Virus record (IMG/VR): IMGVR_UViG_3300033064_004648
Location: 1 to 64,000 of that record
DNA: 64,000 bases
DNA from: an uncultured virus (IMG/VR IMGVR_UViG_3300033064_004648)
Taxonomy: Duplodnaviria; Heunggongvirae; Uroviricota; Caudoviricetes
Direction: 5' to 3' (one strand)
In this document: piece by piece, positions 3,975 through 63,061 of the stretch
Layout: each line of letters starts with the position of its first letter
How positions within the stretch are numbered: the first letter of the stretch is position 1
Made by a program: the position numbers and the translations under genes
The notes under the pieces: model-generated
The model's database searches: none
What the model was told of the DNA's origin: nothing
What the model saw: the letters and a program-made list of their open reading frames with translations, nothing else

Positions 3975-4027
3975 ATGAAAGAAAAAACACAATAAAATAC
4001 AGGTTTTATGTGGTTTAGAAAGGAAAA

Positions 4028-4186
4028 ATGACTATTGAAAGTCAGTTTGATAATGAATATGATTGTATAGAACAAGAATTTGAAGAAGGTTTGATTGATG
4101 AAGATGAATATATTCGGCGCATGAAAAATCTTGAAGAAGAAGGAAGGCAAGCGAATATATTCGCAGACAACGATTTGCCTTTTTAG
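4028..4186 (+). CDS. Small acidic protein (52 aa) ending DNDLPF
   Basis: Below the ORF-track cutoff; AAGGA RBS; lies exactly between two palindromic sites. Confidence 0.65.
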   Translation: MTIESQFDNEYDCIEQEFEEGLIDEDEYIRRMKNLEEEGRQANIFADNDLPF

Positions 4187-4233
4187 CAATAAAACTAAAT
4201 AAAATTCAGATTTTATTGTATAAGGAGTAATAA

Positions 4234-4476
4234 ATGAACAAAGTGGTAGGCGAATATTCAACAGTAATTGAATTTGAAAATGAAGAGCCAAAAGAAATTT
4301 GCAAATTAGGTCTTGGCCAAGAATGTTGTGCCTTTCTGGTTTGTGGATTTACCGGATTTGAATGTTGGAGAATGAATTACCCCGACAATACAACAATTTT
4401 TAGTAGATTGGAAGCGGGAACAATGAACGCAAAAGGAATAGGAGAATGGGCAGGATGTCCTTGGAAAGATGAATAA
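4234..4476 (+). CDS. Cys-rich hypothetical protein
   Basis: AAGGAG RBS. Confidence 0.65.
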   Translation: MNKVVGEYSTVIEFENEEPKEICKLGLGQECCAFLVCGFTGFECWRMNYPDNTTIFSRLEAGTMNAKGIGEWAGCPWKDE

Positions 4477-4690
4477 ATTTCAAAAACTGTGGTATAATAC
4501 AATAGGGAAAATAGCTAATGCAAGAATCAGATTCTTCGTCAGGATGGCAGGATTTTGCAATGTAGATATGATGAAGATTGTTTGTACAAATAAACATGAT
4601 CAAACAACTGTCACTATGGATAGGGATGGAGCCATTCATAGAATTATTAGTATGAAAATCAATATAGATGTTGATAAAATTTTAAATTAA
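4469..4690 (+). CDS. Hypothetical protein
   Basis: Overlaps the previous stop, operon-like. Confidence 0.55.
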   Translation: MNKFQKLWYNTIGKIANARIRFFVRMAGFCNVDMMKIVCTNKHDQTTVTMDRDGAIHRIISMKINIDVDKILN

Positions 4691-4701
4691 TATGAGGTAA
4701 T

Positions 4702-5103
4702 ATGTCTGCTGATAATGGAATTTATATTCTTGAAATGAAAGATCAATCAAGAGTTATTCATACTCAAAATATTGAAAACCTATGGTAGTCTAATTTAGCC
4801 AATAGGATGTGCAAAAATATGGTTCCTACACGTATCATAGATTATTATGGTGACGCAAAATCAATGACTACTTCAGAAGCAAATGCTAAGGCAAGAGATA
4901 TTTATGATGAAATTATGGATGATGATTTTTGTCCCATAGTAGAATATGGAATTTGTTATTTTAAAATAAATAAAACTTGGAAACAAATTTTCAAAGAGGC
5001 TAAGAAATTGGCGACTAAAGAACTAAAAATCTTGCAAAAAAATAATGAAGATAATTTCTATGAACATGAAATTAGGGTGTTGCAAAATATAATAAAAGAG
5101 TAA
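4702..5103 (+). pseudogene. Phage protein (MSADNGIYIL...VEYGI) interrupted by in-frame TAG at 4786-4788
   Basis: GAGG RBS and ATG at 4702 in frame with ORF 4807..5103; single TAG. Confidence 0.65.
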
Positions 5104-5130
5104 TTTTATTTGGTTTAAAAAGAAAATGAA

Positions 5131-5403
5131 ATGAAAAAAATAACTAAACACTTTATTTGGGCAAATATATTCGATGCTATTAGCACAGGTTTTGCCTTAA
5201 GCCAAGGCTGTGTCGAGATGAATATTCTTGTGAATAGGTATGGATGGATTGTTGGCTGCGTAGCTAAAATCTTGGCGACAATACTTGTGGCCTATGTTTT
5301 AGAAAGAGTCAAAGAGTGGTGGTTTTTTTGGGTTCTTCCTATACTTATATGGTTGATTGTTGTATGGAATATTTTCAATGGTATTATGGTGGCAACACAA
5401 TAA
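5131..5403 (+). CDS. Small membrane protein
   Basis: Hydrophobic segments; bounded by two palindromic sites. Confidence 0.65.
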   Translation: MKKITKHFIWANIFDAISTGFALSQGCVEMNILVNRYGWIVGCVAKILATILVAYVLERVKEWWFFWVLPILIWLIVVWNIFNGIMVATQ

Positions 5404-5437
5404 AATAACTATTTTATGTGGTTTAAGAAGAGGAAAG

Positions 5438-5656
5438 ATGAAAATAAAAAACACTTATAGAAAATTAAACAAAGTAGAATATAGTTTTTCTAAACAAGAT
5501 ATTTTAAAAGCATTATCGAATCATTTTAAAATAAAAGTTGTGAATGAAAAATATGATTTTAGTATCTTTGAAGAACTTGATGATGCCAAAGGTTTTGGTT
5601 CAGGAACGTGTGCATCATTGGTAGTATCTTATGAAGAACCAAGAGAGGAAAAATGA
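5438..5656 (+). CDS. Hypothetical protein
   Basis: GAGGA RBS after a site. Confidence 0.6.
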   Translation: MKIKNTYRKLNKVEYSFSKQDILKALSNHFKIKVVNEKYDFSIFEELDDAKGFGSGTCASLVVSYEEPREEK

Positions 5657-5904
5657 AATTTAGAAAGAAACCAATAGTCGTTGAGGCCGAACAGTTTACA
5701 ATGGATTCAAAAGATCAAGTGTTTAATTGGGTAAACTGCAATAGATATGCCGACTTTGTTGACGGCAAACCTGTATTGATAATACAAACACTTGAAGGCG
5801 ATATGACTGTAAGCATTGGCGATTGGGTTATCGAAGGTATCAATGGAGAATTTTATCCTTGCAAACCAGATATTTTTGAAAAGACTTATGAAAAGGTAGA
5901 ATAG
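5653..5904 (+). CDS. Conserved phage protein (KFRKKP..VEA..IQTLEG..GDW..GEFYPCKPDIF family)
   Basis: Recognisable widespread phage family motif. Confidence 0.8.
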   Translation: MKFRKKPIVVEAEQFTMDSKDQVFNWVNCNRYADFVDGKPVLIIQTLEGDMTVSIGDWVIEGINGEFYPCKPDIFEKTYEKVE

Positions 5905-5930
5905 CAGAATGACTTTATGAGGAAAAAATA

Positions 5931-7196
5931 ATGAAAGAATTTTTTGAAAATTTCTTAAAAATATTACAAGAAAACCAGGTTCTTTTGACCACATTAGGTA
6001 TCGGTGGTGCTGGAACAATTATAATGTGGTTGAAGGGTGTGCCCCAAACATTTTTCAATTTATTAAAAAGAGAATTTACAACCGAGATGACTATCACTAG
6101 TCAAAATATTTCATTTTTTAATGTTATAAAATTGTTAGAAAAAACCTACGCAGATAAAAAATGGAGAAAATTAAAAGTTATGAACGGAAGATGGGGGGCT
6201 GAAGAAACTGTTCTTGGGATTGGATATGGACATCATACTTTGATATACAAAAAAAACCTTCTTTTTATAACCTTGGTAAAAGAATCTGCAAATCAAACCA
6301 ATTATGACAAAGATTCACTAACTTTTTTAAAGTTGGGCAGAGACTATGGACTTTTTAAACAAATTATAAGTGATGCTGATGAAATAGCAGAAGATAAAAG
6401 TTCTAACAAAATATACAAAATGGAGGACGGATGGCGCTATGTAAAAGACCAGAAAAAAAGGGCTTTAAGTAGTGTGTTTTTAGAAAAAACTAAGAAGAAA
6501 TATTTATTAGAAACCATAGATAAATTTATATCTAGCGAAGAATGGTATCTTTCACATGGTATTCCTTATCAATTAGGAATATTGTTATATGGTTCGCCTG
6601 GAACAGGTAAGACTAGCTTAATTAAGGCAATAGCGGCATATTTAAACTACTCAATTTATTATTTACCTAGTTCAAGATTATACAAAATTGAAAAAGCAGT
6701 GTCTTTATTGCCAGACAATTCTATTTTGGTGATTGAAGATATTGATACTAATGATATTACTAATAGAAGAGACAATGGATGGGATCAACCAGACGTACCC
6801 GAAGGTGCAAGTGGGACTGCTCCAACAACATCCAATAACAAATCTTCTGATGATAGAGACTTTGAAACTTTTTTGAAGATGGGATTGTCCGAGATACTAA
6901 ATTCTTTAGATGGCATTTTTGCTACTCACGGAAGAATTTTAATTGCTACCACAAACTACCTAGAATCATTGGATTCTGCATTAATTCGTCCTGGCAGAAT
7001 AGATATAAAAATAGAAGTAGGATATGTAAACAACGAAGTATTGAAAGAGTTTTGCAATAGTTTCTTTCCCGAAAACAAAATTAATTTTGATGAAATAAAG
7101 ATTAAGAAAAATAAACTTACCGTAGCATTATTGCAAAATATGATACTTGAAGGTAAAACATTACAAAATATTTTAGACTTTGTAGAAACCCAATAA
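5931..7196 (+). CDS. BCS1-like AAA+ ATPase with N-terminal TM segment
   Basis: WY..HGIPY.LGILLYGSPGTGKTS, IEDID, LSEILNSLDG, TTN..E.LD.ALIRPGRID. Confidence 0.85.
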   Translation: MKEFFENFLKILQENQVLLTTLGIGGAGTIIMWLKGVPQTFFNLLKREFTTEMTITSQNISFFNVIKLLEKTYADKKWRKLKVMNGRWGAEETVLGIGYGHHTLIYKKNLLFITLVKESANQTNYDKDSLTFLKLGRDYGLFKQIISDADEIAEDKSSNKIYKMEDGWRYVKDQKKRALSSVFLEKTKKKYLLETIDKFISSEEWYLSHGIPYQLGILLYGSPGTGKTSLIKAIAAYLNYSIYYLPSSRLYKIEKAVSLLPDNSILVIEDIDTNDITNRRDNGWDQPDVPEGASGTAPTTSNNKSSDDRDFETFLKMGLSEILNSLDGIFATHGRILIATTNYLESLDSALIRPGRIDIKIEVGYVNNEVLKEFCNSFFPENKINFDEIKIKKNKLTVALLQNMILEGKTLQNILDFVETQ

Positions 7197-7221
7197 AAGA
7201 ATGATTTTATGAGATAAGATA

Positions 7222-7407
7222 ATGTATAAATATAAACATACCATCACAAAAGAAATTATTGAGATAGAAGATATTATTGTTGATAGCAATATAAATTATT
7301 TCGATTCTCAGTTTGTTGAATGGTGGTGCCACATAAATGACATAACTAAAGAAATAGATAAATGGTCTGCAACTTATACGATTAGTGATAACGGTATGTT
7401 TAAGTAA
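7222..7407 (+). CDS. Hypothetical protein
   Basis: Short ORF after a site. Confidence 0.5.
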   Translation: MYKYKHTITKEIIEIEDIIVDSNINYFDSQFVEWWCHINDITKEIDKWSATYTISDNGMFK

Positions 7408-7408
7408 A

Positions 7409-7983: not shown

Positions 7984-8008
7984 TATTTACCCTTGAAGAA
8001 AAATAGAC

Positions 8009-8728: not shown

Positions 8729-8735
8729 AAGTGTC

Positions 8736-8764
8736 TTGACAAAACGCAAATAGTATGATATGAT
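8736..8764 (+). promoter_or_regulatory. sigma70-type promoter of the recombinase gene
   Basis: TTGACA-17-TATGAT. Confidence 0.75.
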
Positions 8765-8790
8765 ACTATCATTAACTATGGAGGTTTTCG

Positions 8791-9708: not shown

Positions 9709-9893
9709 TAAAAGGAGAACTTATTATGGTTGGTATTTTAAGATTTATCAGCAACATGTTCGTGACACTTATAGTTGTTCAGGAATTGTTTTTTCCAGAA
9801 TTACTTAAACCTTGGGCATGGTATAAATGGGTGTTCTTGGCAATTGGTGTTATTATTGTTAATTATCAAGAATAGTAATAAAAGGAGGATTTT

Positions 9894-10169
9894 ATGCAAG
9901 AATATAAAGGAACAGTCAGACGAGAAGAGAGTGAAGATTTAGAGGTTTTGAATCTTGTTCCGTCTTTTCACGAGAGTAATATCAAACGTCAGTCAGTTTG
10001 TATAGCTCCATTAACGAGACATGAAACTTCAATTATAATGTCAAAGACAAATGAAAAAGGAGGGTCTTCATTCTGTCATTTCATATTTACCGAAAGAGAA
10101 ACAGACATGTTGATTGAGGCTCTGCAAGAAGTAAAAACTAGATGGAAAGAGAATAAGGTAATAGAATGA
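9894..10169 (+). CDS. Hypothetical protein
   Basis: AAGGAGG RBS. Confidence 0.65.
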   Translation: MQEYKGTVRREESEDLEVLNLVPSFHESNIKRQSVCIAPLTRHETSIIMSKTNEKGGSSFCHFIFTERETDMLIEALQEVKTRWKENKVIE

Positions 10170-10175: not shown

Positions 10176-10370
10176 ATGGTTTTTATGCATACTAATATAA
10201 AAAAGTTAAAAAAGATGATAGGGTATTTTCAGGGATTTTCCGACGAAGAAGTTGTAGAAGTTGAAGTTGGAGATGTTAAAAAAGCATTATTAGACCTTTT
10301 AGAGTTAAAAGAAATGGTTGATGTTATTGCTCGCCAGGTTGAGAAATATTACGGAATACCAATAGGATAA
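10176..10370 (+). CDS. Hypothetical protein
   Basis: Stop codon inside a palindromic site. Confidence 0.55.
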   Translation: MVFMHTNIKKLKKMIGYFQGFSDEEVVEVEVGDVKKALLDLLELKEMVDVIARQVEKYYGIPIG

Positions 10371-10393
10371 AAGAAACATTTTATGAGGTTTAA

Positions 10394-10597: not shown

Positions 10598-10818
10598 CAT
10601 CCTATTCAAGAGGCCATAAAACATATTACAATGGGAGTGAGTGGCTATATTGTGATAACAATAAGCCAGAAGACGAAATGAGACCATGCGCAAGGTGCGG
10701 GAAGTCTCCCACGCCAGAAGGATATGATGCTTGCTTAGGTTATATTGAGGGAGTTAAAAGTGCTTGTTGTGGGCATGGAGTGTCTGTTGTAATAGAAATG
10801 AAAGATGAAACACAATAA
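10591..10818 (+). CDS. Cys-rich conserved phage protein
   Basis: RPC.RCG..PT.EG.DACLG...SACCGHG. Confidence 0.7.
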   Translation: MVTSYSRGHKTYYNGSEWLYCDNNKPEDEMRPCARCGKSPTPEGYDACLGYIEGVKSACCGHGVSVVIEMKDETQ

Positions 10819-10850
10819 AATTACAATTTTATGTGGTTTTAGGAAAACTT

Positions 10851-11393: not shown

Positions 11394-11609
11394 ATGACAT
11401 TAACAAACGAAGATTTAAATAATAGATTTACATATCATAAGCCAAATGAAAAAACTATAATGACCCATCAACTAATTCGTAATTTTGGTTTAGAATTAGC
11501 CAATGAATTAAACAATCTTTTGCCCGATGGACGAGAAAAGTCTTTGGCAATTACAAAATTAGAAGAAGTAGTTATGTGGGCAAACGCTTCTTTAGCGAGG
11601 AATAGCTAA
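11394..11609 (+). CDS. Acb2/Tad1-like helical hairpin protein, copy 1
   Basis: NRFTYH.P...REKSLAITKLEEVVMWAN resembles the Tad1 C-terminal helix. Confidence 0.65.
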   Translation: MTLTNEDLNNRFTYHKPNEKTIMTHQLIRNFGLELANELNNLLPDGREKSLAITKLEEVVMWANASLARNS

Positions 11610-11657
11610 AACCACATAAAAGATTGATTTTATATGATTTAGAAAAGGAAAAATAAA

Positions 11658-11873
11658 ATGACATTAGACGAAAAAGATTTATTAAATAGATTTACTTATC
11701 ATGCACCAAACGAAAGAGATGTATTAAACCATGAAGCAATTCGAAATTTTGGATTAGATTTAGCGAGAATATTGAATGACTTATTACCAGACTCAAGAGA
11801 AAAGTCATTAGCTATGACAAAACTTGAAGAAGCTATAATGTGGGCAAATGCTGCAATAGCGAGGAATAAGTAA
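11658..11873 (+). CDS. Acb2/Tad1-like helical hairpin protein, copy 2
   Basis: Close paralogue of the previous ORF (REKSLAMTKLEEAIMWAN). Confidence 0.65.
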   Translation: MTLDEKDLLNRFTYHAPNERDVLNHEAIRNFGLDLARILNDLLPDSREKSLAMTKLEEAIMWANAAIARNK

Positions 11874-11926
11874 AACCACATAAAAATATAATTTTATCAT
11901 ATTTTAAAGAGGCTACGAACATATAA

Positions 11927-14180: not shown

Positions 14181-14525
14181 GAGTAATCATGAAAAGAGAT
14201 AAGGACAAATTGACGATGAATTTTATAGAAGAGTGGTGCTATAAAGAAGCGGTTCTTGATGCCTATGACGACTTTGGTTTGGAACTTACCGAAGATGAGG
14301 TAATGGAATATTATCATCATCTTTTAAAACGAATCGATAAAAGGAGTAGAGATGAAACAATATGTTGAATTTACTGTGTGGAATTATAAAGAGGAAAGAC
14401 CCGCCACCGAAGAAGAAATAAAAGAACACATTTATATTATATATCATAATGGAAAATGTGTTGTCGAGTGCGATAATGATTATAGCCTGTTGATGGAATA
14501 AAATTGAGATTTTATGTGGTTTAAT

Positions 14526-16988: not shown

Positions 16989-17200
16989 GTATGTACTTGA
17001 TTGGAGAAATGTCGTTTGATCCATATTATATGAGTCGTGGTGGGCCACTAATTGAACTTTGGAATGGTGAAATCTATCACACTAAATCTAGAGCCGGAAA
17101 AGAACTAAAGAAATTAAAAAAACGATTAGCCGACGAAGGAAATCCTTATCCTCAGCTTTGTCTTATTGACGACGATAAATATAATGTAATTAAAGAATAA
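16985..17200 (+). CDS. Hypothetical protein
   Basis: AGGAG RBS; ends just before a site. Confidence 0.6.
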   Translation: MSMYLIGEMSFDPYYMSRGGPLIELWNGEIYHTKSRAGKELKKLKKRLADEGNPYPQLCLIDDDKYNVIKE

Positions 17201-17228
17201 AACACAATAAAATCACAGTTTTATGTGT

Positions 17229-17257
17229 TTGACAAAAATGGCAATCTATGTTACACT
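17229..17257 (+). promoter_or_regulatory. sigma70-type promoter overlapping the right arm of a site
   Basis: TTGACA-17-TACACT with TG. Confidence 0.65.
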
Positions 17258-18395: not shown

Positions 18396-18589
18396 TGAAA
18401 AAATTATTTATATTGTTTATATTATTTTTATTCAAAAAAACCATAAAGATTTCAATGTATGACAATATTGGAGGGTATTTTGTTGACGAGATAGAAGTAT
18501 CTCAACATGCCCACGGAGAAGAAAAAATTAGAATTACATTAAGGTCAAGGCAAAACACAATAAAACCACAATTTTATAAGGTTTAAAAA

Positions 18590-22507: not shown

Positions 22508-22537
22508 TTTTGGGTGGCGCATAAGCGCCATCCAAAA
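22508..22537. terminator. GC-rich hairpin, probable intrinsic terminator
   Basis: TTTTGGGTGGCGC-ATAA-GCGCCATCCAAAA. Confidence 0.6.
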
Positions 22538-22580
22538 CCACATAAAATGAAGGTTTTATGAGGTTTAAAAAAGGAGAAAT

Positions 22581-26096: not shown

Positions 26097-26319
26097 TATA
26101 ATAAAACTATATGTAGTAACTATGTATCGATATGGAGATAGGCAAAAACATTCTTATATTTTGGGCGTTTGGGATACCGAAGAAGAAGCAAATTTATTTG
26201 CAAAAACAGAAGAATCCTACAGGGGATATCCTAAATATATAGCAGAAATATTACCTGTTGAATTAAATAAAGAACTTTATGGTAATGAAAAAATACAAAC
26301 CTAATAAAATGAGGATATT

Positions 26320-26595
26320 ATGAATATCGCGGAAGTGAATACGATAAGAAAACTAAGTAGACAAGTATCTGAAAGTTCTGATGTGCGTACAATTGTCGCT
26401 GCAAGCGAACAATTAATTGAGGCTTCGCGCAAAATTAGGGAAAGATACCAAGAAAAAGAAAATAAAAAAAATCTAAATGCACACAAAGCAATTCAAAAAA
26501 TTAATGAAGTCATTGATAATCGGTATATTCTTGGTGACTCAAAGAAATTAGATAAGATTATAGATATAGTTGGAAAATTAAATAAAGAAGAATAA
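26320..26595 (+). CDS. Hypothetical protein
   Basis: Bracketed by sites with spacers TGAGGA/CGAGGA. Confidence 0.6.
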   Translation: MNIAEVNTIRKLSRQVSESSDVRTIVAASEQLIEASRKIRERYQEKENKKNLNAHKAIQKINEVIDNRYILGDSKKLDKIIDIVGKLNKEE

Positions 26596-27000
26596 ATATA
26601 TACAATAAAACGAGGATTTTATGGGGTATATTTTATATACATATATTAACTCGTATGCGTTAATAACCAGATATTAAAAACACCATAATTGGAGTAAATA
26701 AAAATGAATTTAAATAAAAGCTTCGCCGAAGAATTTGACAAGATTTGTCAAGAAGAAGCAACAATGATGAAAAATATAAAGAGCATAAGGAAATATATCG
26801 GAGAACTTCCTCCATTGACTAATTTGAACGTATGCAAAAAACTTGAGGACGAACATCTGCGTATGTATGAATACACAACACTATTGGCAAATACTTATAT
26901 GAAATTATCTCAACTTTATCATTATACTAGATTAATAAATGAACAAATTTTAGACGATCAAAACATAATAAAATATTTTATCACCAAAGGAGAAAGTAAT

Positions 27001-27962: not shown

Positions 27963-28520
27963 GTGAAGAAACTATTGGTTTTTATATTGATGTTATGCAT
28001 ATTAATTGGATGTACCCCGAATACAGATATTGAAGTTGAAAATACGGCGTCAGAAACAGAATTATCTACGGCAGAATTGCCACGGTTTAAAGGTTTTGAA
28101 TACCTTGAGGATGGTGGTTTGGCTATTTATACGCCGCCTTCGGCTGAAATCTTTTTTGTTATTGATGCCAATACGATATGGTTAGAGTCAGATCTTAGTG
28201 AACAAACACTTCTTGTGCACCGAGGAGAAGAAACGATAGATATGTTTTCTATTTCGTCTGGATTGCCGGCAACTCCAACTCCAACAGGATCATATAGGGT
28301 TTACAAAATGCAAACAGAGCATACTATGTGGTTAGATAACGTAGCGTATGATACGCCATGGATGATGTTTTTTCATCATGATTATGCAATTCATTCTGCT
28401 AATTGGCACGATAGTTTTGGCGAACCAATGAGTCTTGGTTGTATCAATATGTTTGTAGACGAAGCACGAGAAATTTATTATCAAGTTGAAATAGGAACAC
28501 ATATATATATTCATGAATAA
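27963..28520 (+). CDS. L,D-transpeptidase (YkuD) lipoprotein
   Basis: LIGC lipobox; TPTG.Y; AIH..WH..FG.PMS.GCIN. Confidence 0.85.
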   Translation: MKKLLVFILMLCILIGCTPNTDIEVENTASETELSTAELPRFKGFEYLEDGGLAIYTPPSAEIFFVIDANTIWLESDLSEQTLLVHRGEETIDMFSISSGLPATPTPTGSYRVYKMQTEHTMWLDNVAYDTPWMMFFHHDYAIHSANWHDSFGEPMSLGCINMFVDEAREIYYQVEIGTHIYIHE

Positions 28521-28883
28521 AACCAAATAAATGTATTATTTTATGTGGTTTTAAAAGGATTGCTAAATGGAAAACAAAGTTGTAAAGCTGGAGTTTGAAG
28601 AAACAAATCCATCAGATATTCTCGTAGCCCTGATTATTGAAAATGAAGCAGGAGAAGAAAAAGTTATAGGACATGCCACAATTCCTATTGAAAATATCGA
28701 TATATCTAATAGTGGGTTTATCAATTTTGAATAAGGAAAAAGGATTGAATTTCACCGGTATACTGTTTTTCACCGAGCGGTGAAAATTTTATTTAGAGTG
28801 AAAATAACATAAAAGGATAATTTATTATATATACATTACTCGAAAGCGATTACGTAAAAACACCAGAATGGTGTGCTAAAGAT

Positions 28884-30082: not shown

Positions 30083-30452
30083 AGAGCAGTTAGACAAGGC
30101 ATATAAAAAGGCATTAATAGAATCGTTGGGTACAGATAAAGATAGGGTTATGATTGATTTGCGTTTAGATGAGGATATGCACTGCTATGGCGTATTTATT
30201 ACTACGTGGAATACCGATATAAACATTCTTTTTAATACAGCAAATTTTAAAAGAGATTTTAATAATGCACTTAGAGAAGCAACAAAATTAATGGACAATG
30301 GAGATTATGAAAAAAAGGGACATCCAATGTCTTATAATTCTTTTAGTTATGGAATATTTTTAAGTTCTAATTTTGATGATTATATGTCTAAAGAGGATAA
30401 CCCTCTTGCTATAATCAGAGACGCTGGCGGAGAAATAGCAGGAGTAGAGTAA
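30069..30452 (+). CDS. Hypothetical protein
   Basis: AAGGAG RBS. Confidence 0.65.
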   Translation: MIENKEQLDKAYKKALIESLGTDKDRVMIDLRLDEDMHCYGVFITTWNTDINILFNTANFKRDFNNALREATKLMDNGDYEKKGHPMSYNSFSYGIFLSSNFDDYMSKEDNPLAIIRDAGGEIAGVE

Positions 30453-30491
30453 TACAATAAAAGGATAGTTTTATGTGGTTTAGGAGAAAAT

Positions 30492-31426: not shown

Positions 31427-31493
31427 TAGTTAAAAAGTTTTATAATCATTCAATAAAAACCATATAAAAAGATAATTTTATATGGTTTTCTAC

Positions 31494-34104: not shown

Positions 34105-35428
34105 ATTGCATCCAAATGTAAAAAAAATATTAAATATTTTATATAAAAATAATTTTAAAGGATATATAGTTGGAGGCGCGATCCGCGACGGCCTATTAAG
34201 AAGACGTCCTGCCGATTATGATATCTGCACCAATGCCCTTCCTGAAGATGTTATAAGGATGTTCTCTAAATATACTGTTGTACCAACTGGGTTGAAACAC
34301 GGAACTGTTTCTATAATAATTGAAGGATGTACATATGAAGTTAGCACATTTAGATCAGACGGTGATTATTCGGATAATCGTCATCCAGATAGCGTAAACT
34401 TTATTGAAGACATAGAGGAAGATTTGTCACGCAGAGATTTTACCATCAATGCTATGGCGTACAATGAAAAAGAAGGGTTGATAGATCCTTATGGCGGACA
34501 GATTGACTTAAAAAATAAAATAATAAACTGCGTCGGCGATCCAAATCTAAGAATTCAAGAAGACGCTCTTAGAATGTTAAGGGCGATTAGGTTTGCTTCA
34601 CAACTTGGATTTAAGATTGGTGATGTTTGGTTTTCAATAAAAGAAAATAAGAATCTTATTTCTAATGTATCTGCAGAAAGAATTAGAGATGAATTAAATA
34701 AAATTTTGTTATCCGATAATTCAGAAATGATTGCGAAGTTATATCTTGTAGGACTATTAGATATTATTCTTCCTGAATTATCTGCGTGTTTTGGCGTTGA
34801 TCAAAAAAATAAAAATCATATTTATGATGTGGGTGAACATATAATTAATACAATTAAATATACACCCAACAATTTAATTTTAAGATTGTCTGCAATGTTG
34901 CACGATATAGGAAAGCCCAGAACAATGACTGTTGGACCAGATGGCGTTGGGCATTTTTATAGACATGAAGATGTGTCATGCGATATGGCTAGAGAAATTT
35001 TACAAAGACTAAAGTATGATAATCATACAATTGAAGAAGTTTGTTTGTTGGTAAGAACTCACATGAATTCTATTCCTGCCACTAAAAGAACCGTCAGAAG
35101 ATTGCTAAGTCAGATTGGCAAAGAAAGAATGATGACTTGGTGTGCATTAAAAGATGCAGATGCGAAAGCACGAAAAGAATCTAAGTATCTTTCTATGAAA
35201 AGCAAAATAGATCGAGCCATTGAATTATATAATCAAGTTATAGCCGAAGACGAATGTTTTAGTTTAAAAGATCTTGCCATAAATGGCGATGACTTAAAAA
35301 ATATTGGCTATGAAGAAGGCAAAGAAATTGGGAAAGTTTTAAAATCTTGTTTAAAAATGGTTATAGAAGATGCCGAGAAAAATAATAAAGAATATTTATT
35401 AGAGTATGTAAACCAGATAAAACGCTGA
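34085..35428 (+). CDS. cca: CCA-adding tRNA nucleotidyltransferase with HD domain
   Basis: VGGAIRD..DYD, DLSRRDFTINA, EDALRMLRA.RF, ERI..E, LHDIGK. Confidence 0.9.
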   Translation: MINYLIKLHPNVKKILNILYKNNFKGYIVGGAIRDGLLRRRPADYDICTNALPEDVIRMFSKYTVVPTGLKHGTVSIIIEGCTYEVSTFRSDGDYSDNRHPDSVNFIEDIEEDLSRRDFTINAMAYNEKEGLIDPYGGQIDLKNKIINCVGDPNLRIQEDALRMLRAIRFASQLGFKIGDVWFSIKENKNLISNVSAERIRDELNKILLSDNSEMIAKLYLVGLLDIILPELSACFGVDQKNKNHIYDVGEHIINTIKYTPNNLILRLSAMLHDIGKPRTMTVGPDGVGHFYRHEDVSCDMAREILQRLKYDNHTIEEVCLLVRTHMNSIPATKRTVRRLLSQIGKERMMTWCALKDADAKARKESKYLSMKSKIDRAIELYNQVIAEDECFSLKDLAINGDDLKNIGYEEGKEIGKVLKSCLKMVIEDAEKNNKEYLLEYVNQIKR

Positions 35429-35445
35429 TTTTATGTGGTTTTTGC

Positions 35446-37521: not shown

Positions 37522-37557
37522 AAACCACATAAAATGTTGATTTTATAGGAGATTATA

Positions 37558-38551: not shown

Positions 38552-38770
38552 GCAAAAACCACATAAAACAATTATTTTATTGTATTTGAGAGATTGCTTA
38601 AAAGGAGATGAGATGAGCACACTACTATGTTTATTAGGAATTCATAAATGGGAATATTATTATACCGATCTGTTTATGCCAACCGATAAGTATTGTGTGA
38701 GGTGTTTAAAAACACAACACATAAGAGATTCTACAAATTTAGAAAGACAGATTTGTAAGGATCGTATATC

Positions 38771-39544: not shown

Positions 39545-39768
39545 AAGATATTATGATAAGAAAGATGAATAAAGAAGAAGATTTAAGACCTATCGGGACT
39601 ATATTTGATATTGACATACCTCCCAATATTTGTTCGACAAGAATGAACAACGGGACTGTTATAACATATAAAGTTGTCGATCATATTGTCGTTTATCCTT
39701 ACGGCGAATATGGCCCAGCGAAATGGGTTGAAGAAATAAAAACAATAGAGATTGTTGAAACACAATAA
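39541..39768 (+). CDS. Hypothetical protein
   Basis: Ends ETQ* inside a site. Confidence 0.55.
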   Translation: MKDIMIRKMNKEEDLRPIGTIFDIDIPPNICSTRMNNGTVITYKVVDHIVVYPYGEYGPAKWVEEIKTIEIVETQ

Positions 39769-39795
39769 AATTGCTATTTTATGAGGCTTTAAAAA

Positions 39796-40512
39796 ATGAA
39801 AAATAATTTAGAAGGAAAGATTTTTGGTAGTTTGTTGGTAATTAGAAAGACTGATATACCGCCAAATTATAAAGCTAAAAGAAATTCATTTTGGTTGTGC
39901 AAATGTCAAAAGTGTGGAGAAGAAAAAATTAGGACAGGTAATAAATTAAGAAATATAAAAACATGTTCTTGTGAATATAAAGGTCTAAATTCAAAATATA
40001 AAAAATTTAATAAATACGATTTGTCAGGAAAATATGGAGTTGGATATACTCATGACAATCTTCGGTTTTACTTCGATTTAGAAGACTATGATAAAATAAA
40101 AAATTACTCTTGGACTTTATCTGGCAACGGCTATCATCTCTTTACAAATGACTATATTACTCGTAAAAGAATAATGTTGCATCGTTTAGTTTATGGTTTA
40201 ACAAACGGCCAGATAGGATTTATAAATAAAAATTGTTTAGATGTAAGAAAGGCAAATCTAAGAATCGGAAAACATAAGGAACATCTTAGAAATAGCAAAA
40301 TATATAAAAACAATAAAAGCGGAATTATCGGTGTTCATTGGTGCAATAGAGACGAGAAATGGATTGCCCAAATTATGGTCGATTATAAATCTATATATCT
40401 TGGTGGCTATGAAAATTTTGAAGAAGCGGTAAAAATCAGGCTTGAGGGAGAAAAAAAATATTTTGGCAAATTTGCACCTCAGCGACATCTATATAAAAAA
40501 TATGGAATATAA
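39796..40512 (+). CDS. HNH/AP2 endonuclease (HNH possibly degenerate)
   Basis: FDLEDY, LHRL, LD.RK.NLR, N.SG..GV.W AP2 tail; bracketed by sites. Confidence 0.8.
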   Translation: MKNNLEGKIFGSLLVIRKTDIPPNYKAKRNSFWLCKCQKCGEEKIRTGNKLRNIKTCSCEYKGLNSKYKKFNKYDLSGKYGVGYTHDNLRFYFDLEDYDKIKNYSWTLSGNGYHLFTNDYITRKRIMLHRLVYGLTNGQIGFINKNCLDVRKANLRIGKHKEHLRNSKIYKNNKSGIIGVHWCNRDEKWIAQIMVDYKSIYLGGYENFEEAVKIRLEGEKKYFGKFAPQRHLYKKYGI

Positions 40513-40543
40513 TAAAATCCGCCTTTTATTATAGGAGAAAATA

Positions 40544-40891
40544 ATGAAAATGTCAAAAGAAGAAATTTTAAAAATGCCTGCAGGCAGAGAGATGGATGCA
40601 TTGGTGGCTGAACATATATTTAAAACACCATTTCAAAAACCTGGTCATGGCCCATGTTGTACTTGTCAAACTTGTGGTTGGAGTTTTGACGACTGTCAAT
40701 GTGGTTATAGTGAAAGTCGCGATATGGCATGGGAAATACTAGAAAAATTTGCATATTATGAACTTAAAAAACTATTTTTAAGATATAATGTTTATATTGA
40801 AAATAATGATAATATTAGAAGTGGACATTCGCAAGAAAATACGGCACCTCTTGCTATCTGCAAAGCGGCGCTACTTGCACAAATACAATAA
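40544..40891 (+). CDS. Phage ABA-sandwich domain protein
   Basis: M.AGRE.DALVAE..YS....AW...EK..TAPLAICKAAL. Confidence 0.7.
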   Translation: MKMSKEEILKMPAGREMDALVAEHIFKTPFQKPGHGPCCTCQTCGWSFDDCQCGYSESRDMAWEILEKFAYYELKKLFLRYNVYIENNDNIRSGHSQENTAPLAICKAALLAQIQ

Positions 40892-40922
40892 AATCCACAT
40901 TTTATCGTAAAGGGAGAAGCAA

Positions 40923-45732: not shown

Positions 45733-45786
45733 ACATAACTATACCAAATAAAACTGTTAGTTTATGTGGTTTAGAAAAGAGAGAAT

Positions 45787-45990
45787 ATGAAGCAAATTGA
45801 TCCAGTTTTAAATTTAGGATGTAATATATGGAAGACAGAGAAATGTTTTTGTTGCGGTGGAGAGTATGAAAACCCATGTTGGTATATTTTTGAAGATATA
45901 GGAAACAAAACATTCCAAGTTCCTATTTGCAATAAATGCTCTAATGAAAGAGATAAAAACTTTTCTGGATTAAAAGAAACAGCCATATAA
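45787..45990 (+). CDS. Zn-finger hypothetical protein
   Basis: CFCCG ... ICNKC; between two sites. Confidence 0.55.
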   Translation: MKQIDPVLNLGCNIWKTEKCFCCGGEYENPCWYIFEDIGNKTFQVPICNKCSNERDKNFSGLKETAI

Positions 45991-46020
45991 TAAAAACACT
46001 ATTTTGTCATAAGGAGAAAG

Positions 46021-46305: not shown

Positions 46306-46851
46306 ATGAAAAATAAATATATAATCAAAAATAATATTGTAAAAATATTCTTGCCTCGTCGAAATAATAAGGCAAGTATAGAAACATTAATTGACACAGA
46401 AGATTTTGATAAAGTCAACAAGTACACCGGAACTTTTGTTTCTGGATATAACAGGCAAAAGGAAGAGGTCTATGCCCAGATATGTCTATATTTAGGAATG
46501 ATTGATGGAAGTCCTAAATATAAAGTTTTAAGGCTACATAGAATTATAATGGATTGTAATAATCGTAGTCTTCATGTAGATCATAAGAATAGAGATTCTT
46601 TAGACAATAGAAAATCAAATTTACGTATTGTTAGCAATGCAGACAATTTAAAAAACAGAGAATCAAAAAATTCAAACAATAAAACGGGTTATCGCAATGT
46701 TTGTTTTTATAAGGGGTTATATCTTGTTCAACTACAAGTTGGCGGAAAAAATAAGTTGCTTGGAAGATTTAAGAATGTGAATAAAGCAAATATATTTGCT
46801 AAAGAAATGCGTAAAAAATATTACAAAGAATTTAAAGGAAAAACAACATAG
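46306..46851 (+). CDS. HNH/AP2 endonuclease
   Basis: LHR.IM, VDH.NR..LDNRKSNLR, NN.TGYRNV. Confidence 0.85.
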   Translation: MKNKYIIKNNIVKIFLPRRNNKASIETLIDTEDFDKVNKYTGTFVSGYNRQKEEVYAQICLYLGMIDGSPKYKVLRLHRIIMDCNNRSLHVDHKNRDSLDNRKSNLRIVSNADNLKNRESKNSNNKTGYRNVCFYKGLYLVQLQVGGKNKLLGRFKNVNKANIFAKEMRKKYYKEFKGKTT

Positions 46852-47072
46852 AATCATCACTTTATTATAAAAGGAGCGATATGATAAAACAAGCGACGGT
46901 ATATTTTAAAAATGGGCTTAAAGATTGGGTTGATCCTTATGAAAATTATTATATAGAAAAAAATAAAATATTTATAGAATCTTTTTATACATACGATGTT
47001 GAAGTCAATGAAATACAAGAATCGGGCGATGGAGAAATTATATGGGAGAATAAAAAATAATAAATTTTATCC

Positions 47073-48533: not shown

Positions 48534-48678
48534 AAAACATTAAAATCGATTATTGACTGTTCGTTATTCTCCTCCTTATTGTCGTGTCCGTAAAAGTCGG
48601 ATGATTACACCACAAAATGTGCAAATCAGATCACGACAAATAGAAAGAAATAAAAATCAAATAAAATGCAGATTTTAT

Positions 48679-48750
48679 TGGCGGTTCTTCTAAATGGAAA
48701 GAAATCGGGCTTTGATCCCGACAATAGTGGTTCAAATCCACTACTGCCAT
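48679..48750 (+). tRNA. tRNA-Gln(TTG), no encoded CCA
   Basis: Acceptor TGGCGGT/ACTGCCA; TCGGG-CTTTGAT-CCCGA; T arm AGTGG-TTCAAAT-CCACT. Confidence 0.85.
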
Positions 48751-49030: not shown

Positions 49031-49081
49031 AGTGAAACACAATAAAATCGTTATTTTATTATAATATGAAAGGAAAAATAT

Positions 49082-59247: not shown

Positions 59248-59302
59248 AATAGAAACAAAACAACATAAAACAGTAATTTTATCATGTTTAAGGAGAAAAT
59301 AA

Positions 59303-60015: not shown

Positions 60016-60348
60016 ATGAAAAACGCATTAGATTATATTCTGGCGGATAATGTTAATATGGCTTTTCTTTGGAATGAAAAACAGATGGTTGTTATAAATG
60101 CAGCAAGAAAAGAATTAAAAACCCTTCGCCGACAGAATAAAGATTTTATTGATGATGCAAAGGCGTTGACAAATTCTATTGCGTCCTTAAAGGATTTTGT
60201 AAATCTAAGTGGGCTTACATTCAAGAAAAAAGATGGTTCAGGTATTGGTAGTGGAGAAGCGTTGGTGTTCGGACAGTTTATAACTAATATAGATGAGGCA
60301 ATAGAACAACACAACGCCCTCATGCAGAAATATAATAAAACCACATAA
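60016..60348 (+). CDS. Hypothetical protein
   Basis: AAGGAG RBS; ends KTT* inside a site. Confidence 0.65.
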   Translation: MKNALDYILADNVNMAFLWNEKQMVVINAARKELKTLRRQNKDFIDDAKALTNSIASLKDFVNLSGLTFKKKDGSGIGSGEALVFGQFITNIDEAIEQHNALMQKYNKTT

Positions 60349-60384
60349 AATAGTTCTTTTATGTGGTTTAATAAAAAAGGAAAA

Positions 60385-60645: not shown

Positions 60646-60706
60646 TAAAATCGGTATGATAAAATGATTCTTTTATGCGGTTCAAGAAAACATAAGGAAA
60701 AGTAAA

Positions 60707-60931: not shown

Positions 60932-61249
60932 ATGAGCAAAATTGAAGAACTGCGTAAGATTACAGAAGAAGTAAGGGAGAAAAAAAATGCAGATTGGGAA
61001 TCTATTCGTGTAAAGTTTTTTAATGGAAAGTTGTTCGAAAGAATACTGTCTGATTTTGAAGAAGAGGCATTACTGGTGGCTCAAAAGGGTGAGCATATTG
61101 CTTTTATCAGGATGGATACATATTTTCCTCGTGGCGTTATTCCGGACAATGGTGAAAGTCTGCTTGACTATGCTATGACAAGGACTGGCTATTTTTATTC
61201 GTCCGATAAAACAAACGATGGTGGGCGTACATTGGGATTTTCGTGGTAA
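60932..61249 (+). CDS. Hypothetical protein
   Basis: AAGGAG RBS. Confidence 0.65.
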   Translation: MSKIEELRKITEEVREKKNADWESIRVKFFNGKLFERILSDFEEEALLVAQKGEHIAFIRMDTYFPRGVIPDNGESLLDYAMTRTGYFYSSDKTNDGGRTLGFSW

Positions 61250-61295
61250 TATTGAAACAACATAAAATGATGTTTTTATGTGGTTTAGAGGAAAA

Positions 61296-61556
61296 ATGAG
61301 AAAACAAGAGCTGTTAGACGAAGCATATAAGAAAGAAACAAGAGAGACATTTTCTACGAAAAAAGATAGACGAAATCTTTGGCTAAAACATGGTGTCGTA
61401 CATGGCGATCTTCTTGTTGTACAGAGGATTTACTATTGGTTACGTTGGAAACTTACAGGACAGAAACTAAATTTATGGAAAATGACACCACACTATGTTG
61501 TGTTGAATAAAGATTTTTTAAAGGATATGTGGTTTGAAGATATAAAGGAGATTTAA
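61296..61556 (+). CDS. Hypothetical protein
   Basis: GAGGA RBS after a site. Confidence 0.6.
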   Translation: MRKQELLDEAYKKETRETFSTKKDRRNLWLKHGVVHGDLLVVQRIYYWLRWKLTGQKLNLWKMTPHYVVLNKDFLKDMWFEDIKEI

Positions 61557-61557
61557 A

Positions 61558-61761
61558 ATGAAATGGATTTCAAAGCGCCCTATTTATGATGACAGTAGAT
61601 ATATAAAAAAATTTTTACTCTTCCCCATAAAAGTAAAAAGAGAAGTATGTTGGTTAGAAACAGCATATATTTTCCAAGTATGGAATCATGGATGGAAAAA
61701 TAAATTTTTTATTACAGAGGAATATTACAATGATTTTGACCAAAAAAGGAAAGACAAATAA
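61558..61761 (+). CDS. Hypothetical protein
   Basis: AAGGAG RBS. Confidence 0.6.
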   Translation: MKWISKRPIYDDSRYIKKFLLFPIKVKREVCWLETAYIFQVWNHGWKNKFFITEEYYNDFDQKRKDK

Positions 61762-61796
61762 AATGCATCTTTTATGTGGAAAAAGGAAAAAAATAA

Positions 61797-62264
61797 ATGA
61801 AAACAATTGACATGAATTGGAGAGGGTATTCATTCTCTGCCAACGACGACAAGGATAGATCAACGCATGACAAAATACTTATTAGAGTAGATAAATATAC
61901 TTATGCTGAATTTACAAGAGATGCTATATTAGAGTTGATAAGGGAACTGGCTGAATACATTGAAGATGACGATGCCGCTGAAAATGACATATTACAAACT
62001 CAACGGACTAAATTAGAATTAGGGGCAACGGCGGCAGAATTTGTGGTAGGACCAATCGCAGAAGAATTGGCGTTGTGTATGAGATATTTCGAGAAGAATA
62101 TCCCGACAGAAGAAACAGAATTCCCTCCAATTAAAAACTTCTTTCTACATCCATTAATAGAGGACATAGAAAATGATATAATGGCTCATGCGATTGAATA
62201 TCCTGACCACGGTTTTAAAATAAAAGTTGAATGGATTCCTTCAGCTAAGAAGAAAACAAAATGA
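61797..62264 (+). CDS. Hypothetical protein
   Basis: AAGGA RBS after a site. Confidence 0.65.
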   Translation: MKTIDMNWRGYSFSANDDKDRSTHDKILIRVDKYTYAEFTRDAILELIRELAEYIEDDDAAENDILQTQRTKLELGATAAEFVVGPIAEELALCMRYFEKNIPTEETEFPPIKNFFLHPLIEDIENDIMAHAIEYPDHGFKIKVEWIPSAKKKTK

Positions 62265-62581
62265 TAAAAATATATTCAGGAGCATTATCAAGATACTTTG
62301 AAAAATTTACATTAAATAAAGACGACCCATTTTACATATTTTTTCCTTGTAAAAAAACATGGCGTGGAATAGAGGTAATTCCAACAGAATGTAGCAAATG
62401 GGCAAATGAGATTGGTTCTTATAGAATGATATTTGATGAAAACAATCTCAAATATAATTCTTTTGCGATTACGAAGGAAGGTATTGAAATACAAATTTCT
62501 AAAAACAGATTAATAGAAAGCCAAGAACAATTAGTCAACGAAATAAGCCAAGGATTTTTGGTGCCTTTAAAAACCAAATAA
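62261..62581 (+). CDS. Hypothetical protein
   Basis: Ends KTK* inside a site. Confidence 0.6.
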   Translation: MIKIYSGALSRYFEKFTLNKDDPFYIFFPCKKTWRGIEVIPTECSKWANEIGSYRMIFDENNLKYNSFAITKEGIEIQISKNRLIESQEQLVNEISQGFLVPLKTK

Positions 62582-62613
62582 AATACATATTTTATGTGAA
62601 AAGGAATATAAAA

Positions 62614-62811
62614 ATGGAATATGAAATAGTAATGGAAGAACGGATGACTTTAAACAGTGCAGAAATCGATGCATTTATGTCGCTTGTAGGCGAAACGACT
62701 AGAAAGCAAAAAATGGGTTTTAGAGTCTCTGAATCAGACTCTAATTTATTGGATGAAGTTTATTTTGAGGTGTGTGATTTGCGCAGACAGAATAACATAG
62801 AAACCACATAG
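62614..62811 (+). CDS. Hypothetical protein
   Basis: Ends ETT* in a half-site. Confidence 0.55.
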   Translation: MEYEIVMEERMTLNSAEIDAFMSLVGETTRKQKMGFRVSESDSNLLDEVYFEVCDLRRQNNIETT

Positions 62812-62812
62812 A

Positions 62813-63016
62813 ATGATAAGAAAAATATATCTAAGATTGCTTTTATGGGGTTTTAGAATCGGCGCATTTTTTCATTGGGAGTTTGCAGAAGACCAGTGCG
62901 AGGATTTAGAACTTGCTCTTAACGATGAGTTTATTGCTGGTATGAGAAAAATAATTAAAGCTGTAGAATCTACGGATTTTGATATTGGTAAGGTAAAAAA
63001 GGTTGATAAGTTATAG
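62813..63016 (+). CDS. Hypothetical protein
   Basis: Operon-like spacing. Confidence 0.5.
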   Translation: MIRKIYLRLLLWGFRIGAFFHWEFAEDQCEDLELALNDEFIAGMRKIIKAVESTDFDIGKVKKVDKL

Positions 63017-63061
63017 TAAAAAACCACATAAAATGAGGGTTTTATCATAAAAGGAAAAAAT

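Follow-up and report, generated by a model that had tools for sequence, protein, structure and literature searches.

A 64,000-nucleotide stretch of DNA from an uncultured virus of the Caudoviricetes (IMG/VR record IMGVR_UViG_3300033064_004648; this whole stretch is referred to below as the window) is punctuated by copies of a short palindromic element, ATAAAA-N6-TTTTAT, which lie at gene junctions and which co-occur in related phages with a gene for an Xer-family tyrosine recombinase. The element is a sequence-specific site in double-stranded DNA for a dimeric protein. Our tentative reading, for which we see nearly as much in favour as against, is that the copies are Xer-type sites bounding exchangeable gene modules, with exchange taking place between sites that have the same centre. 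The sites, their conservation and placement, their co-occurrence with the recombinase, and the module borders that fall at them were all observed directly in this analysis.

The window is part of a larger element, and copies were also counted in the full 168,212-bp IMG/VR contig, which is rated 100% complete (G001); a 122,829-bp assembly (G000) corresponds to bases 45384-168212 of that contig. Site coordinates are those of the window unless G000 or G001 is named. The virus is a large freshwater phage whose genes lie on the plus strand for ~115 kb, with the late genes following on the minus strand. The plus-strand part contains many small open reading frames (ORFs), many HNH and GIY-YIG homing endonuclease genes, tRNA-repair genes, and a replication module with a PolIII-alpha gene.

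The exact core ATAAAA-N6-TTTTAT was found 35 times in the window, compared with a mean of 0.26 and a maximum of 3 in dinucleotide-preserving shuffles. There are 55 copies in G001 (41 in the 122,829-bp assembly), where the same pattern read backwards does not occur. The arrangement is specific to the 6-bp centre: the next most frequent palindrome spacings were TAAAAT at N4 (18 copies, nested in the same site) and AATAAA at N8 (six copies). The 168-kb contig has 25 cores with one mismatch; shuffled sequences gave 5-12, and the reversed sequence, used as a control, gave 17. The core is near-invariant, with 55 exact copies and only about 10 one-mismatch copies beyond the controls. The original prediction, made from the letters of the window, had listed 34 exact copies and some degenerate ones, a centre that is always 6 bp long and variable in sequence, and a replication module free of copies. 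The repeat proved to be real in each of these respects: there is no exact copy between 49042 and 59265, one-mismatch cores exceed the shuffles, and a two-mismatch example lies at 46848-46865. The element had also been described as a 13-6-13 inverted repeat. The copy cited for this, at 60338-60369, is a perfect 13-6-13 palindrome, but as a rule the description does not hold, as only two of the 55 copies have at least 13 contiguous pairs and the median is the six pairs of the core. The 6-6-6 core alone is invariant and the outer 7 bp are semi-conserved, AAAC of the left outer arm being kept in 84-90% of copies and TTT of the right in 55-63%. The two arms are complements of one consensus, AAACCAC.../...GTGGTTT, and copies in which only one outer arm is kept occur. 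The copies in the window are given below with their full extents; no strand is assigned to them, the 6-bp centre is given as the spacer, and elsewhere in the text single sites are cited by the first base of the core.

3985..4016, exact core, spacer tacagg
4192..4223, exact core, spacer ttcaga
5085..5116, exact core, spacer gagtaa
5393..5424, exact core, spacer taacta
5894..5925, degenerate site, ATAGCA gaatga CTTTAT (three mismatches), upstream of the 421-aa ATPase gene; spacer and GAG flank as in the 7193 site
7186..7217, exact core, spacer gaatga, after the ATPase gene 5931-7196
9871..9902, exact core, spacer ggagga, Shine-Dalgarno sequence in the spacer and ATG in the right core
10360..10391, exact core, spacer gaaaca; spacer and right arm GAGGTTT also in L081 and L082, with other flanking genes
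10808..10839, exact core, spacer ttacaa; ttacag in L082, 94.9% identical over 39 nt, with unrelated flanking genes
11609..11640, exact core, spacer gattga; same spacer next in order in L082, with other arms and genes
11873..11904, exact core, spacer atataa, follows a paralog of the gene preceding 11616
14491..14522, exact core, spacer ttgaga, right outer arm alone consensus
17200..17231, exact core, spacer tcacag, directly upstream of TTGACA-17-TACACT
18553..18584, exact core, spacer ccacaa
19879..19910, exact core, spacer tagaaa
21963..21994, exact core, spacer tgaatc
22535..22566, exact core, spacer tgaagg
26297..26328, one-mismatch site, ATAAAA tgagga TATTAT
26598..26629, exact core, spacer cgagga
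28520..28551, one-mismatch site, ATAAAT gtatta TTTTAT GTGGTTT
28802..28833, degenerate twin of the 29304 site, with the same left arm AAATAAC, left core, and spacer ggataa
29297..29328, exact core, spacer ggataa, before the HNH gene 29339-30082
30450..30481, exact core, spacer ggatag, before the paralogous HNH gene 30492-31241
31457..31488, exact core, spacer agataa, TTGACA next
35410..35441, exact core, spacer cgctga, then TTGACA-17-TACTAT
37522..37553, exact core, spacer tgttga, ribosome-binding site in place of the right outer arm
38556..38587, exact core, spacer caatta
39758..39789, exact core, spacer ttgcta, before the HNH gene 39796-40512
40505..40536, exact core, spacer tccgcc
40881..40912, exact core, spacer tccaca, before the homing endonuclease gene 40923-41606
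45741..45772, one-mismatch site, ATAAAA ctgtta GTTTAT GTGGTTT
45983..46014, one-mismatch site, ATAAAA acacta TTTTGT
46841..46872, two-mismatch site, AAACAAC ATAGAA tcatca CTTTAT, read from the sequence
48654..48685, exact core, spacer tgcaga, adjoins tRNA-Gln
49035..49066, exact core, spacer tcgtta, 11 nt past a perfect TTGACA-17-TATAAT, at the head of the replication module
59258..59289, exact core, spacer cagtaa, at the end of the replication module
60338..60369, spacer tagttc, the only perfect 13-6-13 copy in the window
60652..60683, exact core, spacer tgattc
61255..61286, exact core, spacer tgatgt
61751..61782, exact core, spacer tgcatc
62571..62602, exact core, spacer tacata
63021..63052, exact core, spacer tgaggg, left outer arm alone consensus

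One stretch of the list, 29304-31241, is a tandem duplication of a unit made up of a site and an HNH endonuclease gene; the right arm and the first codons are common to both units, and the spacers are ggataa and ggatag, respectively.

The conclusion that the element acts as DNA follows from the way its arms vary. Over the seven positions of the outer arms, 142 of 343 cells are Watson-Crick pairs, compared with ~151 after the partners were shuffled. Pairing is thus at about the level given by independent conservation of the two arms, i.e., there is no covariation. Cells with G-U combinations (23) do not exceed those with A-C combinations (28), so neither strand is favoured. Predicted fold energies of 38-mers containing the element were -4.5 kcal/mol in G001, -2.4 in G006 and -3.0 in G007, the latter two being more distant relatives described below, while random 38-mers gave -2.9, -2.75 and -2.96, respectively. 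A hairpin formed by the core alone, with its six A-T pairs, has an energy of -0.4 kcal/mol; two copies form stems of 13-14 bp, the perfect one reaching -13.2 kcal/mol. Rfam models found only tRNAs in the window and no family at the sites, and a scan for terminator-like structures gave seven matches against 7.5 expected, none of them at a site. An RNA hairpin, a terminator, and an RNA processing site were rejected on these grounds, and the lack of covariation together with the random-like folding of the RNA indicates a double-stranded DNA site for a protein.

Placement was analysed for the 49 of 55 copies that lie in the plus-strand part of the contig. Genes were called with a simple longest-ORF script, and a few copies called as lying inside ORFs are therefore artefacts. 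As the original prediction had it, the copies sit at gene junctions. For 39 of the 49, the upstream stop codon falls between -12 and +17 nt relative to the core, and the midpoints of 45 of all 55 cores fall outside ORF interiors, compared with ~12% of the genome. The left arm was also said to supply the stop of the upstream gene, with the ribosome-binding site of the next gene following the right arm; this too agrees with what was found, since the TAA inside the left core serves as the stop codon in 13 copies and a start codon with a ribosome-binding site was called downstream in 42 of 49 (in 29 of the 42, 9-25 nt past the core). In the more distant relatives G002, G006 and G007, GGAG and a start codon come next, 0-3 nt past the core. 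All copies are read in the same direction as their genes, with a stop codon on one side and a ribosome-binding site on the other. Approximately eight of the 49 copies adjoin strong sigma-A-like promoters (TTGACA-N17-TATAAT-like), and the rest do not. The sites at 17207, 31464 and 35417 are just upstream of a sigma-A-like -35 element, and those at 49042 and 59265 are 11-17 nt downstream of a -10 element. In some copies, a Shine-Dalgarno sequence lies inside the spacer. A sigma-A promoter was rejected as the identity of the element: there is no conserved -35 element upstream, promoters are found on either side of the sites or not at all, and the spacer itself may hold the Shine-Dalgarno sequence. 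One exact core, at G000 77261-77278, is part of the sequence that codes for the C terminus of a GIY-YIG homing endonuclease (where it reads IKNGFYNDIYDL*), and one-mismatch cores occur at the same place in GIY-YIG paralogs (window 21410 and 53475; G000 64474). This core is probably a coding coincidence and not a true site.

The most likely binder of the sites is encoded by the phage itself:

8791..9708, plus strand, Xer-family tyrosine recombinase gene, 305 aa, candidate binder of the sites

The product matches the PHROG integrase family (1e-53) and XerA in the PDB (2e-23), and aligns with XerA, XerC-like, and XerD structures. A profile built from four orthologs (those of G001, G002, G006 and G007) matched XerC-like (1e-46), XerA (3e-45), XerD (8e-40) and XerH (2e-25) entries in the PDB, while MrpR, a repressor with the tyrosine-recombinase fold, was unmatched even at E 10. 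The catalytic R, K, HxxR, H and Y residues are invariant in the alignment of all four, and each of the four has the Pfam Phage_integrase domain and a SAM-like N domain. NCBIfam scores were below the cut-offs of the Xer equivalogs (180 compared with 220 for XerA), and the score with the integron-integrase model was 86.5, against a cut-off of 265. A promoter-like sequence, TTGACA-17-TATGAT, lies upstream of the gene at 8736-8764. No close relative of the recombinase was found in INPHARED, where the best match was 32%. A second, more divergent tyrosine recombinase is encoded in the late region (G000 86142-87161, minus strand; Pfam Phage_integrase, 3e-15), and a RuvC-like resolvase gene (G000 87176-87634, minus strand) lies directly beside it, with a site at its 5' end in both G001 and G002.

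INPHARED contained no DNA match to this phage. A near-full-length site pattern, ACCACATAAAA-N6-TTTTATGTGGT, matched this phage and one unrelated contig among viral contigs; an exact site-plus-arm pattern matched this phage alone, as did a search with a single PurZ-like protein as the query. A host search in genome contigs yielded three contigs of metagenome-assembled genomes (with Clostridiaceae, Marinamargulisbacteria and Clostridiales labels), all without the motif. Distant relatives were found by protein-anchored searches of IMG/VR, and in five of these the core is abundant relative to the backwards-pattern control:

G002, 61-kb fragment, 25 cores (control 1)
G006, 122 kb, 32 cores (control 1)
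G007, 133 kb with terminal repeats, 17 cores (control 0)
G011, 59 kb, 7 cores (control 0)
G012, 119 kb, 14 cores (control 2)

In two other relatives, the motif is absent or at chance level (none in the 84 kb of G003, one in the 81 kb of G008). The recombinase follows nearly the same pattern. Orthologs with 29-34% amino acid identity are encoded by G002, G006 and G007, and one was identified by profile in G011 (E 3e-78); G012 gave only a weak tyrosine-recombinase match (7e-14). A profile search found no ortholog in G003 or G008; these genomes are 76% and 58% complete, respectively, which makes their absences soft. The PolIII alpha of G008 is 56% identical to that of G001, and that of G006 57%. 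A profile scan of metagenome contigs yielded 62 loci with relatives of the recombinase. Cores were present in eight of the 11 closest (L081-L091, 29-75% identity) and in none of the other 51; L082 carries seven cores within 3.4 kb, and 15 were counted in the 20.8 kb of L087, which belongs to the G002 phage. Conservation of the G001 outer arms does not extend to G002, G006 or G007; the core is the same in phages with protein identities of 30-60%. The other proteins that share the presence pattern of the motif are a MazG-like protein and three proteins of the structural region; no other DNA-binding protein does so.

The genome also codes for a YonO-type RNA polymerase of 906 aa (G000 115752-118475, minus strand; L019:11752-14472; PF05183, RdRP, E 3e-18). 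The gene of this two-barrel family enzyme is located near the head of the late minus-strand block, and orthologs are present in G003, G006 and G007. Since G003 has the polymerase and lacks the motif, the motif is not the promoter of this enzyme, and that candidate was rejected.

Closer relatives allowed the borders of gene modules to be compared with the sites. The recombinases of L081-L085 are 72-75% identical to that of the window, and their DNA is ~75% identical; another close pair, L091/G006, overlaps a site-poor region and is uninformative on borders. Three sites occur in the same order in G001 (gaaaca at 10367, ttacaa at 10815, gattga at 11616) and in L082 (gaaaca at 2057, ttacag at 2295, gattga at 2580), while all genes between and around them are unrelated (best blastp E 0.07). 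Three spacers are identical between L082 and G001, compared with 0.16 expected from unrelated genome pairs. At the gattga site, the two phages have the 18 nt of core and spacer in common but neither outer arm. Between gaaaca and ttacag, L082 has a gene with 76% identity to G001 25884-26093, a gene located 15 kb away, which has no site upstream and only the remnant of a left half-site downstream. The site that precedes the homolog of gene 7222-7407 has a spacer of the form g[a/c/t]atga in six sequences (G001 and the contigs of five relatives); it is found with four different upstream neighbours, and BLAST homology begins at the first base of the core. An insertion/deletion (indel) difference is bounded in the same way. 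The 1.29-kb ATPase gene (5931-7196) is flanked in the window by ATAGCA gaatga CTTTAT GAG and ATAAAA gaatga TTTTAT GAG (7193), and L085 lacks the ATPase gene and has just one site. A single gene is likewise enclosed by each of two other same-spacer pairs (28809/29304; 11958/12173, G001 coordinates). Genome-wide, degenerate twins with the same spacer were not enriched (observed numbers were about those of the control), and it is the three or four lying near their exact twin that stand out.

Our tentative reading of these results as Xer-type sites of module exchange is favoured by the design of the sites, by the co-occurrence of a catalytically intact Xer-family enzyme, by a site order that is kept when gene order is not, by the same-spacer pair around an indel, and by arms that change while the centre stays. 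In this mechanism, the two inverted half-sites, with an invariant inner ATAAAA/TTTTAT and a looser outer 7 bp, surround a 6-bp centre that differs at every site, and the recombinase 8791-9708, with its full catalytic set, would be the most likely protein to bind them. The sites would mark the borders of modules of one to a few genes, which related phages would exchange, gain and lose there. We infer binding, catalysis at the sites, and a role for the centre: strand exchange would occur within the 6-bp centre between same-centre sites, usually the orthologous sites of two co-infecting relatives and less often a circular module and a genomic site. Because the centres in any one genome differ, deletion of its own DNA at the sites would be avoided. 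A bolder form of this reading, which we think possible but doubtful, is that a freshwater phage clade runs a natural recombinase-mediated cassette exchange with an Xer-like enzyme and dozens of sites, each with a 6-bp centre of its own. Sites of the same genome could then not recombine, and sites with the same address in co-infecting relatives would swap modules at gene borders, even where the genomes are too diverged for homologous recombination.

The original prediction had likened the element to the core sites of tyrosine recombinases, and the inverted arms, the fixed 6-bp centre, and the A-tracts beside the centre do match single-recombinase Xer sites as described in a review. Its proposal of a cassette array inserted and excised by site-specific recombination stands in part: recombinase co-occurrence and borders at the sites speak for it, and indels located off the sites, together with the fit of a regulatory role, speak against it. 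Likewise, of the breakpoints that were expected in relatives, the gene replacements and the 1.29-kb indel are at sites, and some other indels are not.

Several observations weigh against exchange at the sites. A 1.4-kb difference at window 7364-8808 that takes in a homing endonuclease gene has no sites at its borders, and for an additional gene in L084/L085 the border is a 12-nt repeat instead of a site. Viable swaps must break between genes and the sites fill intergenic space, so borders at sites are partly expected in any case. Genes adjacent to sites were not less conserved after control for length, the difference being not significant. Only 6 bp per arm are conserved in G002, G006 and G007, which is short for a recombinase arm. 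The link between motif and recombinase is based on few genomes, mostly fragments, and shared ancestry could produce it. Sites are kept at orthologous junctions beside essential genes and near ribosome-binding sites or promoters, which regulation would also explain. In G001 and G002, whose proteins are ~35-47% identical outside the polymerase, these junctions are after the 421-aa ATPase gene, at both ends of the replication module, and at three late-strand positions; the spacers at these orthologous junctions differ. Avoidance of identical spacers within a genome amounts to a hint. No identical pair, in either orientation, and no self-palindromic spacer was found among 129 exact sites (G001, G002, G006 and G007); 4.4 identical pairs were expected from column shuffles (Poisson P ~0.012), and ~2.1 from the between-genome rate of 5 in 11,678 pair-orientations (P ~0.12). 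Finally, eight public sequencing runs from two studies (freshwater and viral metagenomes), all in the form of Logan contigs, contain the stretch, and four of them were compared over 3900-23899. In these four, the reference form was contiguous, with no differences in long pieces and no indel in this interval. Neither excised circles nor empty-site junctions were found in their contigs, which cannot show rare forms, so the read data are silent on excision. The joints reported in the runs have short sides (20-34 nt), some at or beside site copies and others within genes; one loose end agrees with sequence flanking a different site copy of this phage, and the joints at or beside sites are therefore read as cross-matches.

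A rival account, which we consider possible though unlikely, is that the sites are regulatory operators or roadblocks through which a phage protein controls many early and middle genes. The binder could be the recombinase-family protein acting as a DNA binder, as MrpR does on the SPBRE element of the Bacillus phage SPbeta, or a dimeric regulator of another kind. Mosaic borders would in that case arise secondarily, the sites being 30-45-nt islands that are the only homology left and that homologous recombination would use in the way described for PeSL elements. This account draws on precedent, since SPBRE is reported to be bound by a repressor with a tyrosine-recombinase fold, SPbeta and the present phage both encode a YonO-type RNA polymerase, and PeSL-mediated shuffling by homologous recombination has been published. 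It is also consistent with the sites that abut sigma-A-like promoters (17207, 31464 and 35417; 49042 and 59265), with the sites kept at orthologous G002 junctions, including both ends of the replication module and the three late-strand junctions, and with cores placed 0-3 nt ahead of the ribosome-binding site in G002, G006 and G007. A 6-6-6 palindrome is, moreover, a usual operator geometry for helix-turn-helix dimers. Against such a role, all four orthologs keep the catalytic residues at 29-34% identity, whereas MrpR is reported to have lost them, and the ortholog profile has no MrpR match in the PDB at E values up to 10. Immunity-type operators usually diverge, whereas this core is identical across phages with proteins only 30-60% identical, and most of the sites have no promoter nearby. 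As for homologous exchange, the gattga site shares 18 nt between relatives, which is little for that purpose, and different sites within G002, G006 and G007 share just 6 + 6 nt.

We regard it as improbable that the sites are read by a host protein (a nucleoid protein, a host Xer, or a global regulator) or by an unrelated phage protein. The recombinase would in that case serve another purpose, e.g., resolution of genome dimers or integration at a single site. Invariance of the core across very diverged phages is what would be expected if a conserved host factor reads it, the recombinase co-occurrence is based on eight genomes or fragments, and there is a second tyrosine recombinase beside the RuvC-like gene in the late region. 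Yet G008 is as distant from G001 as G006 is, judging from PolIII alpha (56% and 57%), and has neither motif nor recombinase, and no other DNA-binding protein shares the pattern of the motif. An RNA element is very improbable indeed, whether as a hairpin that terminates or stabilises polycistronic mRNA or at which the mRNA is cut, or as a translational-repressor operator beside the ribosome-binding site. The sense transcription of every copy, between stop codon and ribosome-binding site, and the two copies with 13-14-bp stems (-13.2 kcal/mol for the perfect one) are compatible with it. There is, however, no covariation and no bias of G-U over A-C, the median stem has six A-U pairs with an energy of -0.4 kcal/mol, and fold energies in G006 and G007 equal those of random 38-mers. 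Copies that keep one outer arm, the lack of an Rfam family, and the terminator scan (seven against 7.5, none at sites) argue in the same direction.

Other features of the genome were noted in the course of the analysis. Upstream of the window and reaching into its start, at G001 28,842-48,754, there is a 20-kb sugar-modifying block without an internal site; it contains an aminotransferase, epimerases, many glycosyl- and methyltransferases, and radical SAM genes, and is partly common to G006 and G007. A 255-aa protein encoded at G001 27,598-28,362 (L011:7598-8362) has the Pfam ATLF family domain PF07737 (E 8e-18), with a metalloprotease-type fold. An intein with a LAGLIDADG domain splits the ribonucleotide reductase gene (G000 66460-69408). 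Tandem 28-nt units (GAGAAGGAACCTTCCRGCAGGCAAGCTT-like) continue up to the end of the contig (G000 ~122,660-122,829). Rfam identified two tRNA-like genes that are absent from the ARAGORN list, at 22868-22979 and 48752-48823; the former is 112 nt long and may contain an intron or insert. The gene at window 12460-13527 is adenylosuccinate-synthetase-like, with the PHROG label phrog_1211 ("2-aminooxy adenylosuccinate synthetase"), and its identity to the G002 version is 65%. The phage also has genes for MazG-type pyrophosphohydrolases, the loci listed with the synthetase gene being 5653-5904 and G000 69437-69787. This gene set resembles that of phages that replace adenine by 2-aminoadenine. If such replacement took place here, the A-T-rich sites would be chemically different in virion DNA.

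Phage genomes are mosaics, and the mechanisms that make their junctions are mostly inferred. If module exchange at Xer-type sites is the correct reading, it would amount to a dedicated, sequence-programmed mechanism of mosaicism in viruses, akin to plasmid dif modules and to engineered cassette exchange, and the phage would be a natural source of heterospecific sites for a single recombinase. If the sites are operators instead, the Xer-like protein or another factor would control ~55 junctions, extending the MrpR/SPBRE and stoperator themes to an uncultured clade. Under either reading, the sites are a strong and testable marker of the clade. Term searches of a limited library, which do not prove absence in print, gave no phage with a dif-like site array and its own Xer-type enzyme. 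The original statement that nothing comparable was known in a phage was nevertheless too strong, given the shuffling at T4-type PeSLs and the binding of the SPBRE elements of SPbeta by a recombinase-fold repressor, both of them published.

Among known systems, XerH/difH, XerS/difSL and XerA/dif share with the present one the protein family and, according to a review, the A4/T4 beside a 6-bp centre and arms of unequal strength. In those systems a single site per chromosome serves dimer resolution; this phage has dozens, with differing centres and located at gene junctions, and the NCBIfam score of 180 is below the cut-off of 220 for XerA equivalogs. Integrons resemble the present arrangement in their arrays of one-gene units, each with a recombination site, and an integron reading of phages is in print. 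Unlike attC sites, most copies have no pairing beyond six A-T pairs and form no folded single strand, there is no single attI with a common promoter, and the enzyme scores far below the IntI model cut-off (86.5 against 265). Stoperators of cluster A mycobacteriophages are likewise reported as dozens of near-identical protein-binding sites in short intergenic gaps; they are asymmetric and bound by a monomeric immunity repressor, whereas the sites here are palindromic with a variable 6-bp centre. SPBRE shares with our element the character of a repeated intergenic element in a large phage with a YonO-type polymerase, the binder there having a recombinase fold. It is described as a 15-bp motif with ~10 bound copies at promoters, in contrast to 55 mostly promoter-less copies here; MrpR has reportedly lost its catalytic residues, and the recombinase described here keeps the catalytic set and has a profile without similarity to MrpR.

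T4-type PeSLs are described as repeated intergenic motifs amid small non-essential genes that act as exchange points between unrelated sequences; in the present phages, too, the sites are at borders of insertions, deletions and replacements between relatives. PeSLs consist of a sigma-70-like promoter and a terminator stem-loop and work through homologous recombination, while the element described here has no hairpin, usually no promoter, and an 18-nt core of recombinase-site design with a co-occurring recombinase. The dif modules (pdif) of Acinetobacter plasmids differ in that they are found on plasmids instead of a phage and depend on the host pair XerC and XerD, with two arm types; here there would be a single phage-encoded Xer-like protein and there are near-symmetric arms of one type, with ~55 sites that overlap stop codons and abut ribosome-binding sites. 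Many dif-like sites are reported to flank small variable modules in the accessory part of these plasmids. Similarly, the sites in this phage flank units of one to a few genes, and it is at the sites that module content differs between relatives.

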